IMG/VR virus record: IMGVR_UViG_2547132278_000009
DNA: 40,040 nt
From: a virus
Taxonomy: Duplodnaviria > Heunggongvirae > Uroviricota > Caudoviricetes
Strand: one strand, 5' to 3'
The stretch's first letter is position 1; each line of letters opens with the position of its first letter. The notes below the pieces were generated by a model. That model was not told the origin of the DNA. It did no database searches and saw only the letters and a program-made list of their open reading frames with translations. Shown here in pieces: positions 4,446-10,556 of the stretch. The translations under genes and the position numbers were made by a program.

Positions 4446-7400
4446 TTAGTTACGTTGAGTGTTTGGGTTGAGTGATCCGCCAGGGCGTTTCTCTTGAGCG
4501 ATAGTCTCAAGCGCGATTGCTTTCATCCGTTGAGCGGCATTGTTCCATATGCTTTCTGTATCGCCGGATTCTGTCGTGCTACCGTCACTATGGACGTTGA
4601 TCTCAATTGATACAGGAGAAAGAACATTTCCTCCTCCACTCATACCATCGGTACTTAGCGTTACAGGGATTGTTCGACCATCAGGCAATGGAACATACGC
4701 CTCATTCATATCGCCTTCCCCAAACAACGCCAATTGAGGTGAGTTGGCGATACCGCCTTTCTGGTATGCCCGGAGCGGGATCACGCCGTCTTTTCCGAAT
4801 ATTCCTCCATTTGCAAACTTCGGGATTGCAGGAATGCCTTTAGTTCCGTCAGCCACACTGCTGGTTGCGGTTTTAGCAGAGCTTGATGTCACGCTGTCGA
4901 AACCACCGCCAGCCCAAGCTGAAACAAGACCAGATGCAACCGTTGCTCCAAAACTCAACCACTTATTACCAGAGCCTGAAGCATTAGCTCCAAGCATTGC
5001 AAACGCGGCAGACAGAGCGCCGGTAACAGAGCTGAGGTTCTGCATCGAGAAGATGGAGTCCTTCACTGCTTTTGTCTCAGCATCTTTGGCTTCGGTGCTA
5101 TCAAATAGCCCCGATACCCAGCTACCAATCGCATTTGTTGCTGTGCCAATTGCGCTGGTGGTCTGCTGTGTTGTTTGCCCCAATCCAGTTACCGAACTGG
5201 ACGTCTCCTTCGTGGCTTCTCCTACAGACTTGTCGCCGTTAACAGTGTTGCCCATTCGTACCCCTTGATTGGCAACGGCGGAAGCAACCCCGGTCAGCAA
5301 ATTACCACTCTGTGAACTACCAGCAGCGGTGGTTCCCATCCCCAACATGTTCATTAGAGGCAGCGTGATCTGCGACTTCACGACCATATTGGTGATATCT
5401 TTCAAAATGGACTGAGATAGGCTGGAGAAGCTCATCTTCCCGTTAATAACGAAATCAGTCAGGACATCAGTTAAGCCACTAAACAAATCAGTCCAGGTGC
5501 TTTCGATCTGCTCTGCCAGGTTTTCGTATTCCAGTGCCAACTTCTGCGTCGCAGTCCCCGTCTCTTTAATAAGCGCGGTATTGCCAGCAGCAATCAGTTG
5601 ATTGATTTTCTTTGTATAAAGCGCCACAACTTTAGGATCAGACGCCTTATCACGAAGTTCTATCAACGCTTTGAGATTGCGGTTGTAGGTGTCTTCGAAA
5701 TCAGCAACTTTCTCTTCGCGAGACGGCGTATAGCCAGCACTAATAATGGAATCCGCCTCCGGTGCCCAAGTGGAGATCATCTGCTCAACATTGCGGCGAT
5801 TAAACATCTCGCGATATTCAGGTGTCGCATTTTTGAGGTCTTCAAGACGTTTTTTCGCCTTGTCGATCATCTCTTGAGTGATGAACTCGTTAGGTACCGC
5901 ATTAGCCAAATCTGTCAGCGATTTCGTTGTATCGCGAAGAGACTGATCAAACGATACCGTAGCCTTAGAGCTTTCACCCATTTGCCCCATAAGCTGATCG
6001 GCTTTGTCCAGAGCCTTCTGGTATCCGGCTGCCAGTTTCTGTTGCGCTGCCTGTTCCTTCTTGGCCGCACGCTGCGAGGCGTTAGCTGATCGTTGGGCTG
6101 CTTTCTCGGCAGCTGCTGCATCCTGTTCACGAGCTTTAGTCAGTGCAGCAATGGCTGCGGCACGCTCTTCATCGCTCATTTTCTCCAGAGAGCTGGCGCT
6201 GGATGCTTTCTGCAAATTAAGCTGCGTCTTGAGTTGTTTAGGCCCAATAATCGGCTTACCTTCGAAGTCCATCATCGGAGTGCCGTCAGGCAAAGTACGC
6301 TGATAAGTCGCAGAATCCATCTGGTTTCGCATATATTGCGCCAGCGCCTTCTTAGCCGCTTTATCAGTTGTACCTAACCCAAGAACAGTCCCCTGGTTTG
6401 ACATTACGCCCTTACCAGTTTTGGCCGCGTTATCTCTCTCGAACTCTGCCTGAGTCAATTCCTGAGCAACGGCTTCCAAATGCTCCTGATAACCGCGAAT
6501 ACTGCCTTGCAGTTTCTGGATCTGCTCGGTATTTCCATCCTTTTTGGCTTTTTCAAGCTGATCATTAAGAGTCGCAATTTGCTTCTCGGTCGCATTCTTA
6601 CGAGAAGAAAGTGAATCAACCAGTTTTTGCGCAGGCTCCAGATAGCTTTTGTTTACCGTTTCACGTAACGGTGCCAATAGCTTGTTCTTTTCGTCATCTG
6701 AAAGTGAACCGTCATCATTGATTTTCTGGATCTTATCCAGAGCCTCTTGCCGGGCTTTCACGAATGTTGCCGCGAAAATCTGGTTTTCCGCTCGAATTTT
6801 CTCAATCTGAGATTCGGCAGCCTCTTTAGCCAAACGCTTTGCTACAGCGCCGTCACCAAGAGCTATCGTGCCGGTTATCTTTTGATACTCCTCCTGATTT
6901 TTTTTCAGGCGTGCTTCGATGTCAGCCTTCGACTCTTTGTGAGTAATAACACCGGCAGAGTTAGATACGTAATTAACACCCTCACCAGTTTTTAATGCTC
7001 GTTGATCAGCAAGAATCTGCTTTTCGAGCTTTTCTGCGCGGTCGGCCATTTGTGCACGTTTGGCCGCTGTCATCGCTTCTGGTATTTTCCTAATCTCGTC
7101 AACGACCTTTGAAGTTTCGCTGCGGAGCATGGTCATGTACGTGATTAGGCCAGCAACAGCTACAGTGGCAACTGTAAATGCTGCCCCTATAGGGTTTGCT
7201 GCAATGAACGCCGTTAATCCAGCAAAAGCGCCTTTAAGCCCCGTAATCGCCCCACGGATGGCGAAAATAAGAGAGGGGATCGGAGCCAGCCCCATACGTG
7301 CCGCACGATTGAATCGAGTTACTGCTGTAGCGCCGAGGTTAAATGGAGTCTGTATGGCGGTCGCCATCGTGGCAAAGGTGCTAACCATCTGGCTCCCAGC

Positions 7401-9020
7401 GCCAACTACCCCCATGATCCCTGCTCGCATCAGTTTGAACGCAACCATCGCGGCCACGACCTTACCGAGATTAATTACCAGCTCTTGGTTCTTTGCTAAC
7501 CATTGAGCAAGCTGACGCAACCCATCGATTGCCGTTGTTAACCCCGAACCTAAAGAATTGGCAAACGAAATCCCTTCGGCGCTATTCATGATTGAAGCCA
7601 GTTCTTTCATCCCCTTCGATAGAGAATCCAGATATCCGGCCTGACCAACCCGATCAGCAAATAACGTGAATGACGTCTGAAGTTGCGCCAGCGCACCTGT
7701 GTAGGTTTGCATCATGTCTTTCGCTGCGTTCTCATTCTCCGCACGCAGACCAACAAACATCAGAGACAACGCCTGTTTTGCCTCAACCGTACCGCTGGCA
7801 ACGGCTTTAGTCAGTTCCCCCATAGTGATGCCTGCGGCGTCTGCCATTGCCTGCATCGCGTTAGGAACGGCTTCACCTAATTGCTGACGTAGCTCTTCCA
7901 TTGACACAACGCCCTTACCGGACATCTGCTGAACGGCCACAGCCGCACGTTTCAACAGCTCACTATCACCACCAAAACGAGCAACGGAGTCCACCAGCGC
8001 CTTCAGAGAACCATCGGTTGGATCTAAGCCAGCAGAACGAAACTTCACGAAGGAGTCTGTTAACGCCTGCATCGCGAACGGCGCATTTTGAGCCATGTCT
8101 ACGATGTACTTCATGTCATCGGCGGCAGCCTGGCCAGGGTTGGACTTCTCCTTATTCAACCCTCGAAGCATCACCCGCATACGTTCCATTTCGGCCGCAG
8201 CTTCAACAATAGGCTTCTGCCACCCAAACATGATGTCAGTAACCGTTCTGGCTGCATCTCCGATCTCGCCAAGCAGGAAAATGTTGCCACGAAGGCCAGA
8301 GAACATACCTCCTTCGTTACTTTTACCGCTATGGCCAGAAGCGCCGCTACGCCGCCCGCTACCACCATCGCCACTTCCAGATGTACGAACGCGTACCGGC
8401 TTGCTAATCAGTTGCTGACGTCCGATAACTTCGTCCATCTGCTCACGAACCTTTTTCAGTCCCTCGGCAGCCTGACTCGTTGTGACACCCCAATTACTGA
8501 GTCGCTTCGTCGTGGTATTAAGGCGCGTATTCATGCCACTCACGGACGCAGAGGCTTCTTTGACCTCCGTACCAAAGCGGCTTGCGCTTTTGCTTGCATA
8601 GGTCGCCCAATCAGAGAAATCATTTAGCTCTGATTGCACTTTACGTAATGACGCGGTGAGTTTATCTACTGAAGAAGCTGTCGTATCGACGCGCTCAATC
8701 AGGGCTTTAAGACCAGAATTGAGGCTGGTGATGTTGCCACGCATTTTACGCGTAGCATCTGAAGCAAGCTCAAAACCGGCAGCTACATCCTGTAGTTTAT
8801 CTGCCGTAGAATCGAGCTTGCTTTCCAGAACGCCAATGATACGGGCGACCGAACCCAAAGAGCGTTCAAAGGTTTGGATTTTTTGAGCAGGCTTTGTTAC
8901 CTGCTCACCAAATCGAGTAAGCAGTTTCCCCGCACGATCGATTGACGCTGTAAACTGTTTGTCTTCCAGCGACAGGATAAACTCTACGTTTTGTGACATT
9001 CCCTTGTCATCCTCTGCCAA
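4446..9020 (-). CDS. Tail tape measure protein
   Basis: 1524-aa mostly alpha-helical/coiled-coil ORF with Gly/Ser/Thr/Ala-rich segments, located between G/GT and M as in lambda H. Confidence 0.85.
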   Translation of the reverse strand: MAEDDKGMSQNVEFILSLEDKQFTASIDRAGKLLTRFGEQVTKPAQKIQTFERSLGSVARIIGVLESKLDSTADKLQDVAAGFELASDATRKMRGNITSLNSGLKALIERVDTTASSVDKLTASLRKVQSELNDFSDWATYASKSASRFGTEVKEASASVSGMNTRLNTTTKRLSNWGVTTSQAAEGLKKVREQMDEVIGRQQLISKPVRVRTSGSGDGGSGRRSGASGHSGKSNEGGMFSGLRGNIFLLGEIGDAARTVTDIMFGWQKPIVEAAAEMERMRVMLRGLNKEKSNPGQAAADDMKYIVDMAQNAPFAMQALTDSFVKFRSAGLDPTDGSLKALVDSVARFGGDSELLKRAAVAVQQMSGKGVVSMEELRQQLGEAVPNAMQAMADAAGITMGELTKAVASGTVEAKQALSLMFVGLRAENENAAKDMMQTYTGALAQLQTSFTLFADRVGQAGYLDSLSKGMKELASIMNSAEGISFANSLGSGLTTAIDGLRQLAQWLAKNQELVINLGKVVAAMVAFKLMRAGIMGVVGAGSQMVSTFATMATAIQTPFNLGATAVTRFNRAARMGLAPIPSLIFAIRGAITGLKGAFAGLTAFIAANPIGAAFTVATVAVAGLITYMTMLRSETSKVVDEIRKIPEAMTAAKRAQMADRAEKLEKQILADQRALKTGEGVNYVSNSAGVITHKESKADIEARLKKNQEEYQKITGTIALGDGAVAKRLAKEAAESQIEKIRAENQIFAATFVKARQEALDKIQKINDDGSLSDDEKNKLLAPLRETVNKSYLEPAQKLVDSLSSRKNATEKQIATLNDQLEKAKKDGNTEQIQKLQGSIRGYQEHLEAVAQELTQAEFERDNAAKTGKGVMSNQGTVLGLGTTDKAAKKALAQYMRNQMDSATYQRTLPDGTPMMDFEGKPIIGPKQLKTQLNLQKASSASSLEKMSDEERAAAIAALTKAREQDAAAAEKAAQRSANASQRAAKKEQAAQQKLAAGYQKALDKADQLMGQMGESSKATVSFDQSLRDTTKSLTDLANAVPNEFITQEMIDKAKKRLEDLKNATPEYREMFNRRNVEQMISTWAPEADSIISAGYTPSREEKVADFEDTYNRNLKALIELRDKASDPKVVALYTKKINQLIAAGNTALIKETGTATQKLALEYENLAEQIESTWTDLFSGLTDVLTDFVINGKMSFSSLSQSILKDITNMVVKSQITLPLMNMLGMGTTAAGSSQSGNLLTGVASAVANQGVRMGNTVNGDKSVGEATKETSSSVTGLGQTTQQTTSAIGTATNAIGSWVSGLFDSTEAKDAETKAVKDSIFSMQNLSSVTGALSAAFAMLGANASGSGNKWLSFGATVASGLVSAWAGGGFDSVTSSSAKTATSSVADGTKGIPAIPKFANGGIFGKDGVIPLRAYQKGGIANSPQLALFGEGDMNEAYVPLPDGRTIPVTLSTDGMSGGGNVLSPVSIEINVHSDGSTTESGDTESIWNNAAQRMKAIALETIAQEKRPGGSLNPNTQRN

Positions 9021-9393
9021 ATATTTGCATCAGTTGCTCTTTGGCGTCAGGGTCTGCCTTATCCTGGCTTGGATCGTAGACTTTATCTGTTACGACAGGT
9101 CTTCCAATCCTGAGTTGCAAACCCTCCATGAACGCCTTCACAGCCTCGCCATCCGCCTGGGACGCACGAGCGACTTGTAAGTTGCGGACATCCTCTTCCG
9201 CACGCAGACGGTCTATATTGCGACTGAGCATCCAGAACATCGTGAGAGGAACGTTCAGTAGCTCTAATGGCGACACGGCGTAGTGAGCAACTACACGACT
9301 GAAATAGAATCCGAGATCTATTGAGACGGTCCTTGTCCCGGATTCATCGCGGGAAATTACTTTGCCCCTTCGCCAGCCGCTTTTTCGTTTTCT
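9007..9393 (-). CDS. T-like -1 frame extension of the tail assembly chaperone (G/GT pair)
   Basis: ORF 9007..9276 is in the -1 frame relative to G; by hand translation that frame stays open upstream to about 9393, overlapping the last ~12 codons of G. Confidence 0.5.
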   Translation of the reverse strand, partial: RKRKSGWRRGKVISRDESGTRTVSIDLGFYFSRVVAHYAVSPLELLNVPLTMFWMLSRNIDRLRAEEDVRNLQVARASQADGEAVKAFMEGLQLRIGRPVVTDKVYDPSQDKADPDAKEQLMQIFGRG

Positions 9394-9674
9394 TCATCAA
9401 TCACTTCCATAGCGAAGGTGAAGATCTGCTGGAGTTGCGGAACAGTCAGTTTTTCAAGAACTTCGTCAGGTACTGAAGGGATAACCTTACGAACCAGATC
9501 TGCATAAGCTGTCACTTGCTCAACAGGAGACATGTTCATGAGATCTTTGCCTTCCATCTGCTTGATGGAAACAAAGAGGCCGACGGTCATTTCAACGATG
9601 GGATATTCTTTGCCACCAAATTTGATGCTTTTTTTCGGCGGCAGAATGGAGTCGAGATCGAGTAATTTGGTCAT
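9357..9674 (-). CDS. Tail assembly chaperone G-like
   Basis: 105 aa, acidic C-terminus, immediately upstream of tape measure and overlapped by a -1 frame ORF. Confidence 0.65.
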   Translation of the reverse strand: MTKLLDLDSILPPKKSIKFGGKEYPIVEMTVGLFVSIKQMEGKDLMNMSPVEQVTAYADLVRKVIPSVPDEVLEKLTVPQLQQIFTFAMEVIDEENEKAAGEGAK

Positions 9675-9735: not shown

Positions 9736-10482
9736 TTAGCTTGCGGCAGTTACAGAGACGGCTTTGGTCGCCTTCTTGGCACCGTCATTAGTTGTGAAGG
9801 TGATATTGGCTGAACCGACAGCTTTACCAGTTACCAGTCCGTTCTGATCTACGGTCGCTTTATCAGTCGCATCAGAGCTCCACACGCCAGTCTTATTGGT
9901 TGCATCGGCCGGGGTGAAGGTTGCGCTCAATTGAACTTTAGTGCCCACTTTTACGGTCGGTGAAGACGGGGTCAGCGTGACGCTCTCAACCGGCTTTGGG
10001 AGGCTCATTTTCCCCAACACGCCAGCGTCGTCCGGGTAAGCGGAAAACTCAACTGAGAACACGCGAACGTCGTCAGACTGGTAGGTCATGGTGAAGTTAC
10101 CCGCGGTTGCTGCTTTAGGGATGGTCAGAACATAATCCGTCGCATCCTGCGGGGTCAGCACCAACTCTTTCGCAACGTCGATCAGGTTCACTCCCTGCGC
10201 AGACGTGATGGTTACGGTATCTTCGCCAGAACTCAGCGTGGAACCTGGCATCAGATCGACCATGTTTTTCAACACGGATTCAGCCAGCGGCGCAGTAATG
10301 GTGATGTTGCGGCCCTGGATCAGCTCGGAGATCGTGGTCTGGCCCAGCTGGTCTACGGTCACTTTCAGCGTTTCGGTTGCGATTTCAACCTGAACACCAC
10401 CTTTGGTGTAACCCAAATCCACACCACCAAACGACACCTTACAGGCACCAAGTTTGATGTTTTTTACATGGGTATTAGACAT
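9736..10482 (-). CDS. Major tail protein V-like with C-terminal Ig-like (Big_2-type) domain
   Basis: ORF 9736..10518, likely start MSNTHVKN at 10482; C-terminal repeat VTLTPSSPTVKVGTKVQLSATFTPADATNKTGVWSSDATDKATVDQNGLVTG typical of Big_2 domains, as in lambda gpV. Confidence 0.75.
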   Translation of the reverse strand: MSNTHVKNIKLGACKVSFGGVDLGYTKGGVQVEIATETLKVTVDQLGQTTISELIQGRNITITAPLAESVLKNMVDLMPGSTLSSGEDTVTITSAQGVNLIDVAKELVLTPQDATDYVLTIPKAATAGNFTMTYQSDDVRVFSVEFSAYPDDAGVLGKMSLPKPVESVTLTPSSPTVKVGTKVQLSATFTPADATNKTGVWSSDATDKATVDQNGLVTGKAVGSANITFTTNDGAKKATKAVSVTAAS

Positions 10483-10556
10483 TGATGGAAAACTCCTTTT
10501 TCCGTTAATTCTACGCATTCATTGCGCTAATAGTAAGTATATACTTACCAATTGAG

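Follow-up and report, generated by a model that had tools for sequence, protein, structure and literature searches.

A probable lambda-type G/GT frameshift at an A_AAG slip site next to the stop codon in the tail module of SSU5-like phage-plasmids

How a reading frame that lacks a start of its own, placed between the tail-tube and tape measure genes, might be translated is the question raised by virus record IMGVR_UViG_2547132278_000009 (IMG/VR; Caudoviricetes), the whole 40,040 nucleotides (nt) of which are called the window here. All features of the window discussed below lie on the minus strand. Gene G (9357..9674) encodes 105 amino acids (aa) from an ATG and stops at the TAA 9359-9357, and is followed by T, a segment of 117 codons in the -1 frame (9360..9010) with its stop TGA at 9009-9007 (9007..9360 in total). 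An earlier note on this DNA had proposed a G/GT tail chaperone pair, with a frameshift on a run of five A near the end of G. The general idea was strongly supported by the position of the genes, by the conserved and start-less frame of T and by heptamers in distant homologues, but the slip site given there was not supported. Our analysis indicates that the locus is most probably a G/GT pair in which a lambda-style -1 slip on A_AAG, immediately before the G stop, would yield a GT fusion.

Translation of the three minus-strand frames showed G to finish with ...GAA GGG GCA AAG TAA. The -1 frame, with its codons at 9393, 9390 and so on, is limited upstream by TGA TGA (9394..9399) and is open from 9393 to 9010, and its overlap with the last 12 codons of G (stop codon counted) was thereby reproduced as the earlier note had described it. 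Taken alone, neither this arrangement nor an A5 run is remarkable: a -1 frame that stays open for 100 codons or more beyond the stop is found at 19 of the window's 117 long open reading frames (ORFs), and the minus strand has 93 A5 runs, or one in roughly 430 nt. The comparative evidence does go beyond chance; it was drawn from 96 usable related loci with a G identity of 64-100%, to which more distant loci at 29-49% were added. In each of the 92 loci for which DNA across the whole region was available, no stop interrupted the -1 frame for 350-356 nt beyond the end of G, and the frame was equally long in further homologues down to 29% G identity. The +1 frame was rejected as a continuation, because a stop codon was reached 2-27 codons past the end of G in each of the nine more distant homologue loci checked. 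In an alignment of 65 unique G-T sequences, used for variability (entropy) analysis, all indels were multiples of three, and the peak of variability was found at codon position 3 of the G frame up to the G stop (0.896), then at position 3 of the -1 frame immediately after it.

Coding constraint in the -1 frame set in right behind the G stop; the first usable start can lie as much as 131 nt further on. In the window, the stretch 9356-9277 contains no ATG, GTG or TTG in the -1 frame, and related sequences gave entropies of 0.151, 0.093 and 0.450 at -1-frame positions 1, 2 and 3 of this stretch, and of 0.237, 0.158 and 0.630 in the rest of T. The first start in the -1 frame was found 26-131 nt past the G stop depending on the lineage, with a Shine-Dalgarno (SD) sequence never present, and the lengths of T from gene callers ranged from 74 to 109 aa. 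An invariant motif, ID.GF.F, occupies T residues 14-21, upstream of the first canonical start in the window (GTG 9276, residue 29). T is in these respects an overlapping -1 ORF under coding constraint, with neither a start nor a ribosome-binding site of its own. It matched phrog_1131; in the AlphaFold2 (AF2) model of T, the confident part started at residue 2, with a low overall confidence (predicted local distance difference test, pLDDT, of 62), and a structure search with the T-domain model matched just one uncharacterised fragment.

Entry into the -1 frame could be narrowed down from stop codons in relatives. A synonymous GGC to GGT change at 9372 creates a -1-frame TGA (9372-9370) in 42 of the 96 loci (28 of the 65 unique sequences), among them SSU5 and a Yersinia pestis contig (locus L085), which limits entry to 10 nt (AGG GGC AAA G, 9366-9357). 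The sole slippery element in this interval common to all loci is A_AAG with the stop (9363-9357). The proposed slip site is GCA_AAG (9360..9365), in which A_AAG stands in the 0 frame (GCA AAG, 9365-9360) and would permit the cognate tRNA-Lys to re-pair from AAG (9362-9360) to AAA (9363-9361), base 9360 being read twice. It is abutted by the G stop UAA (9357..9359; UAG in some relatives, UGA never), a candidate stimulator of the shifty-stop type. The motif AAAGTA[AG] was invariant in all 96 usable loci, A_AAG_UA(A/G) was kept in homologues at 49% and 39% G identity (L098-L100), and NNA_AAG_UAR (9365-9357 in the window) was the invariant element down to 39% G identity. The earlier note had suggested a comparison of slip sites between homologues; when run, it gave A_AAG-stop as invariant, in place of the A5 site, which was not kept.

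Selection on synonymous sites was evident within this element, as the third positions 9363 and 9360 are two of just 8 invariant third positions among 104 in G. The codon before AAG changes from GCA (Ala) to GTA (Val) across relatives with its third-base A retained, and the slip codon for Lys is AAG without exception. Elsewhere in G, Lys codons other than codon 15 vary between AAA and AAG or change residue. The stop always adjoins AAG in the clade with AK* or VK* ends, as it does at the tube-Ig junction of certain relatives (see below), and the G/T junction is the sole A_AAG_stop site in the window that is flanked by long ORFs on both sides. The absence of a canonical X_XXY_YYZ heptamer from the overlap, already noticed in the earlier note, was borne out: the window and the SSU5-like clade have just A_AAG (G_GCA_AAG, C_GUA_AAG). 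A heptamer is usual for G/GT pairs without being an absolute requirement (PMC5009743, PMC10885494). Tetramers of the form Z_ZZN are defined as the minimal -1 site (PMC4066793, PMC5009743), A_AAG is by far the most shift-prone of them in Escherichia coli (PMC4066793), and NNA_AAG is used by IS1222 and occurs in Bacillus subtilis cdd (PMC5009743).

Heptamers were found at the corresponding place in more distant members of the family. A profile search of 1.84 billion representative proteins returned 432 relatives of G, and all of 100 sampled relatives belonged to phrog_893 ('unknown function'), which G of the window also matched. Wherever DNA of a distant locus was retrieved, the T homologue was in the -1 frame. 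Homologues at 29-40% identity carried G_GGA_AAG followed directly by UAA at the homologous C-terminus of G (L103 and L105), G_GGA_AAC one codon before the stop (L106), or G_GGA_AAA three codons before the stop (L101, as also in L102); L104 had G_GGG_AAG_UAA. The C-termini of 136 family representatives were GK (21), GK plus one residue (19), KK (17) and GN (10), and just 8 ended in AK, VK or TK. Because the latter are so few, the SSU5-like clade appears, from these sequences, to be a minority variant in which a lambda-type G_GGA_AAG has degenerated to xGCA_AAG or xGUA_AAG, leaving A_AAG abutting the stop.

We infer the following course of events at the junction, including its low efficiency. 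Most ribosomes would make G and terminate at the UAA 9359-9357, while a minority would shift back one base on the last sense codon, when the single E. coli-type tRNA-Lys (anticodon mnm5s2UUU) leaves AAG and re-pairs on AAA with UAA or UAG waiting in the A site, that is, with Lys-tRNA in the P site at a 'shifty stop'. The next codon read would be GUA (9360-9358), and translation would go on in the -1 frame through to the UGA 9009-9007. The expected product is a low-level GT fusion of 222 aa and 24.8 kDa with the junction ...AAGEGAK-VISRDESG.... As in lambda, G would be expected to coat the tape measure protein, as would the G part of GT, and the T part to recruit the tail-tube protein, with neither G nor GT being present in the virion.

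A slip on the A5 run GAA_AAA_G (9386-9380), as the earlier note had it with P-site tRNA-Lys, would give the fusion ...EENEK-SGWRRGKVISR.... The run exists in the overlap, although at 9385-9381, one base off the 9380-9384 first given; a continuous product would be possible in the window, as the -1 frame is open from 9393, and A_AAA does give weak, measurable -1 shifting as a tetramer in E. coli, although it ranks far below A_AAG (PMC4066793). In the 42 loci with a TGA at 9372-9370, however, a ribosome that shifted on the A5 run would read just 4 codons before terminating, and in relatives at 64-72% identity, which retain the G/T arrangement, the motif is replaced by GAAGCCG or GAAGCAG (6 of the 65 unique sequences); A5 runs are moreover common on this strand, as given above. 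On account of the -1-frame stops and the loss of the motif, GAAAAAG (9380..9386) was ruled out as the programmed site, and a shift there must be regarded as very improbable; the proposed slip thereby moves 20 nt downstream, to A_AAG with UAA (9363-9357). Transcriptional slippage was rejected as well, the A5 run not being conserved and the A-runs measuring just 3 and 5 nt, which is too short for slippage by RNA polymerase. Separate translation of T, by initiation at GTG 9276 or ATG 9240, by non-canonical initiation at AUU 9357, preceded by the SD-like GAAGGGG, or by reinitiation after termination at the G stop, would agree with the databases, all of which annotate T as its own ORF, and with the AAGGGG that lies 7 nt upstream of AUU 9357 in the window. 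This is hard to reconcile with a first canonical start that shifts between lineages and lacks an SD, with the presence, upstream of GTG 9276, of the best-conserved T motif and of 28 codons constrained as protein in the -1 frame, and with the classic -1 heptamers that distant homologues carry exactly at the junction; in addition, codon 9357 is ATT, ATA, ATC, GTT or GTA depending on the lineage, and the SD-like element is not conserved (GAAGAAG, GAAGACG or GACGACG in relatives). We consider separate translation improbable. That the -1 frame is open by chance or decay, with T unexpressed, could be argued from the lack of functional annotation for both ORFs, but this reading appears effectively refuted by the comparative data, given a frame that is open for 350-356 nt in 92 loci and a T sequence conserved under strong purifying selection.

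A slip at the same site and with the same product could instead be triggered in the A site, on GCA_AAG or GUA_AAG as a hexanucleotide (Licznar-type), with a cmo5U34 tRNA-Ala or tRNA-Val in the P site, perhaps with help from a hairpin, and with the stop being irrelevant. In E. coli, tRNAs with cmo5U34 read every codon seen before AAG here (GCA, GUA and CCA). The efficiency of NNA_AAG depends on the wobble propensity of the tRNA that reads NNA (PMC5009743), which would suit such a trigger, as would the heptamer-bearing relatives, in which the stop is not always adjacent, and a possible 9-bp hairpin (9307..9345), in which GAAUCCGGG (9345-9337) would pair with CUCGGAUUC (9315-9307). The hairpin, however, starts 14 nt past the slip codon, where 5-9 nt is the spacing looked for in such stimulators; its covariation was not significant (40 of 500 shuffles scored as high) and its single-sequence z was -0.69, even though 96.7% of cells were paired in an alifold consensus of ten representatives, with one compensatory pair, in Photorhabdus. 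Its stem is broken in L098 and L099, where the slip motif is kept, and the hairpin is unproven and probably not essential. The stop, on the other hand, is the sole conserved flanking element, directly adjacent in every tetramer-type locus and at the tube-Ig junction, and the P-site slip at a shifty stop is favoured for this reason; the A-site trigger is a possibility to be taken seriously, nearly as likely as the shifty stop, if short of an even chance.

Other candidate stimulators were considered and rejected. A 5-bp hairpin, UCCCG/CGGGA (9354-9350 / 9340-9336), has a spacing of 5 nt and is weak, and as judged by eye it is lost in Photorhabdus and Raoultella-type relatives. The SD-like GAAGGGG (9371-9365) is not conserved as an upstream stimulator, nor is the SD-like GGAAGUGAU (9408-9400), which is 36 nt away. 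Variability of synonymous codons among the 65 unique sequences dipped to 0.2-0.4 at 9430-9333, 9324-9270 and 9153-9099, relative to 0.7-1.2 elsewhere, and the first of these dips has its start some 65 nt upstream of the slip site, in a part read in the G frame alone. An RNA element, recombination history or codon constraints might lie behind the dips, which were discarded as a diagnostic of the slip site because they are broad and occur elsewhere in T too.

G is a candidate tail assembly chaperone (TAC) by its setting, with a tentative hint from a predicted structure. G is acidic and small (105 aa, 11.7 kDa, isoelectric point 4.7), and its AF2 model (pLDDT 73) consists of a beta-hairpin and helices. 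In a search of BFVD with this model, the top match was 'Tail assembly chaperone' (E value 2.8e-4, TM score 0.62), followed by several weaker TAC matches. Gene order, size, acidity and the -1 extension fit, and support G as a candidate TAC; what is suggested by analogy is a lambda G/GT-like way of working in the same genomic niche, as distinct from a place in any curated family of TAC sequences. As modelled by AF2, G and the N-terminal half of T share their order of elements, a short beta-hairpin and then helices, which may point to an ancient duplication or be a coincidence in low-confidence models.

Several observations weigh against a programmed G/GT frameshift at this junction, or at least reduce the weight of the data in its favour. 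Many of the 96 loci are closely related, and together they represent about 8-10 independent lineages. In E. coli, a UAA with a U after it is regarded as efficient in termination, which would limit any stop-dependent pause. No convincingly conserved stimulatory RNA structure or SD-like element was identified at the junction, and A_AAG in E. coli reporters shifted near background when alone and at 5.6% with a strong pseudoknot (PMC4066793). G matched no TAC family in Pfam or NCBIfam (nor did T match any family in these two collections), Phage_TAC_7 was matched by just 1 of 100 distant relatives (E value 1.3e-4), a sequence profile search of the PDB gave no match, and a fold search of the PDB with the G model came back empty. 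In GenBank, RefSeq/PGAP and metagenome gene calls the two ORFs stand as separate hypothetical proteins without an annotated join, and a fusion of about 222 aa was not found in the protein collection. Among the papers searched, none linked SSU5 to frameshifting.

In DNA sequence, the region shares 84-93% identity with SSU5-like phage-plasmids of Klebsiella, Escherichia and Salmonella, which places the window in this group of siphoviruses. Of 5,426 complete E. coli genomes, 231 had the G-T region in identical or near-identical form, always on a plasmid and never on a chromosome; in the Y. pestis contig (NCTC5923, L085) the G gene was 97% identical to that of the window. Upstream of G lies the major tail (tube) protein gene (9736..10518), with a C-terminal Big_2 Ig-like domain in frame, and downstream of T the tape measure gene (4446..8999), which matches Pfam TMP_3 and Tape_meas_lam_C and the start of which, at 8999, was mapped from the SSU5 annotation. 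The order tube gene, G, T, tape measure gene was kept in every relative examined. The tube ORF is listed as 260 aa from ATG 10518; ATG 10482 (MSNTHVK...) is probably the true start, given an annotated length of 747 nt in homologues and a PHROG match from residue 13 onwards. In one metagenome contig (JGI 3300045647, L097) the tail genes are split into many short ORFs, with a truncated G and a split tape measure gene, resembling an error-rich assembly or a decaying element, and this contig was left out of the locus counts.

A second copy of the signal was found one gene upstream, in relatives of a Raoultella-type clade (L091-L094 and L096). Their tube gene stops after 163 codons at ...CCA AAG TAA or TAG, and a Big_2 domain of 84-86 codons continues in the -1 frame (K-V-S-V-T-G-V-T-V...), at 2158-2448 in L091, 2159-2449 in L093 and 2151-2447 in L096, and likewise in L092 and L094. 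The counterpart in the window (10518..9736) has the same Big_2 domain fused in frame (LPK-PVESVTL). The tube-Ig junction of these relatives is probably a second programmed -1 frameshift with an NNA_AAG_stop signal. At the end of the tube gene in L099 and L100 (about 1830), the sequence AAA AAA AAG TAA contains a classic A_AAA_AAG heptamer; the -1 frame is open for just 25 codons there, with no Big_2 domain, and may be a remnant of an Ig-domain frameshift. A broader proposal, that NNA_AAG_UAR is a portable and stop-dependent -1 shifty-stop cassette that works without RNA structure, taking G to GT everywhere and the tube protein to an Ig-decorated tube in some members, is speculative and rather unlikely. 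If it were true, competition between release factor and the Val-tRNA for GUA would determine how much long product is made relative to short, and this ratio could respond to release-factor activity or the growth state of the host.

Among known systems, the closest is the tail chaperone frameshift of lambda G/GT (Levin 1993; Xu, Hendrix & Duda 2004, 2013, 2014, as summarised in PMC5009743). In common with it, the locus has two small ORFs between the major tail and tape measure genes, of which the second is in the -1 frame without its own start, a probable slip at the extreme 3' end of the first, and an expected low-level fusion with one part for the tape measure and one for the tube protein; the heptamer of lambda itself, G_GGA_AAG, is found in distant homologues of the window G. 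Unlike in lambda, G of the window belongs to no Pfam or NCBIfam TAC family, and its putative site is the tetramer A_AAG, with GCA or GUA instead of GGA as the P-site codon and abutting the stop. The same minimal motif, with tRNA-Lys re-pairing from AAG to AAA at a low expected efficiency, is found at the A_AAG and NNA_AAG sites of IS1222 (G_CGA_AAG), of tetramer-type members of the IS3 family and of B. subtilis cdd (A_CGA_AAG), a class of site treated by Sharma 2014 (PMC4066793). Those sites have a 5' CGA and a downstream structure or upstream SD, whereas here the 5' codon is GCA, GUA (or CCA), the stop is adjacent, and no conserved structure or SD was found. Shifty-stop frameshifting, reportedly described by Weiss et al. 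in 1987, with the +1 shift at CUU_UGA of prfB said to be a case, likewise combines a slippery P-site codon with a following stop, the slow decoding of which gives time for re-pairing. The classical programmed cases are +1, and a -1 shifty stop in a phage structural gene is what the present locus would add. Ig-like domains are added by frameshift to phage structural proteins (Fraser et al. 2006), for example the T3 capsid and Lactobacillus phage A2 (PMC5009743), and their interchange between in-frame and out-of-frame states is mirrored by the Raoultella-type relatives (-1) and the window (in frame); this likeness bears on the neighbouring tube gene and on relatives, not on the G/T junction of the window.

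The locus would thus add to a well-known system a new and unannotated member whose slip site is reduced to a tetramer. This would not surprise a specialist, and it leaves the understanding of tail assembly or frameshifting unchanged. SSU5-like phage-plasmids are common in Enterobacteriaceae, and both genes were listed as separate hypotheticals in every record examined, so recognising the probable G/GT pair would correct this annotation. As a clean case, from nature, of a tail-chaperone slip site reduced from G_GGA_AAG to a bare A_AAG beside the stop, the locus would also be useful for training frameshift predictors, which are mostly geared to heptamer-like motifs. For the family as a whole, it would give a function to phrog_893 and phrog_1131.

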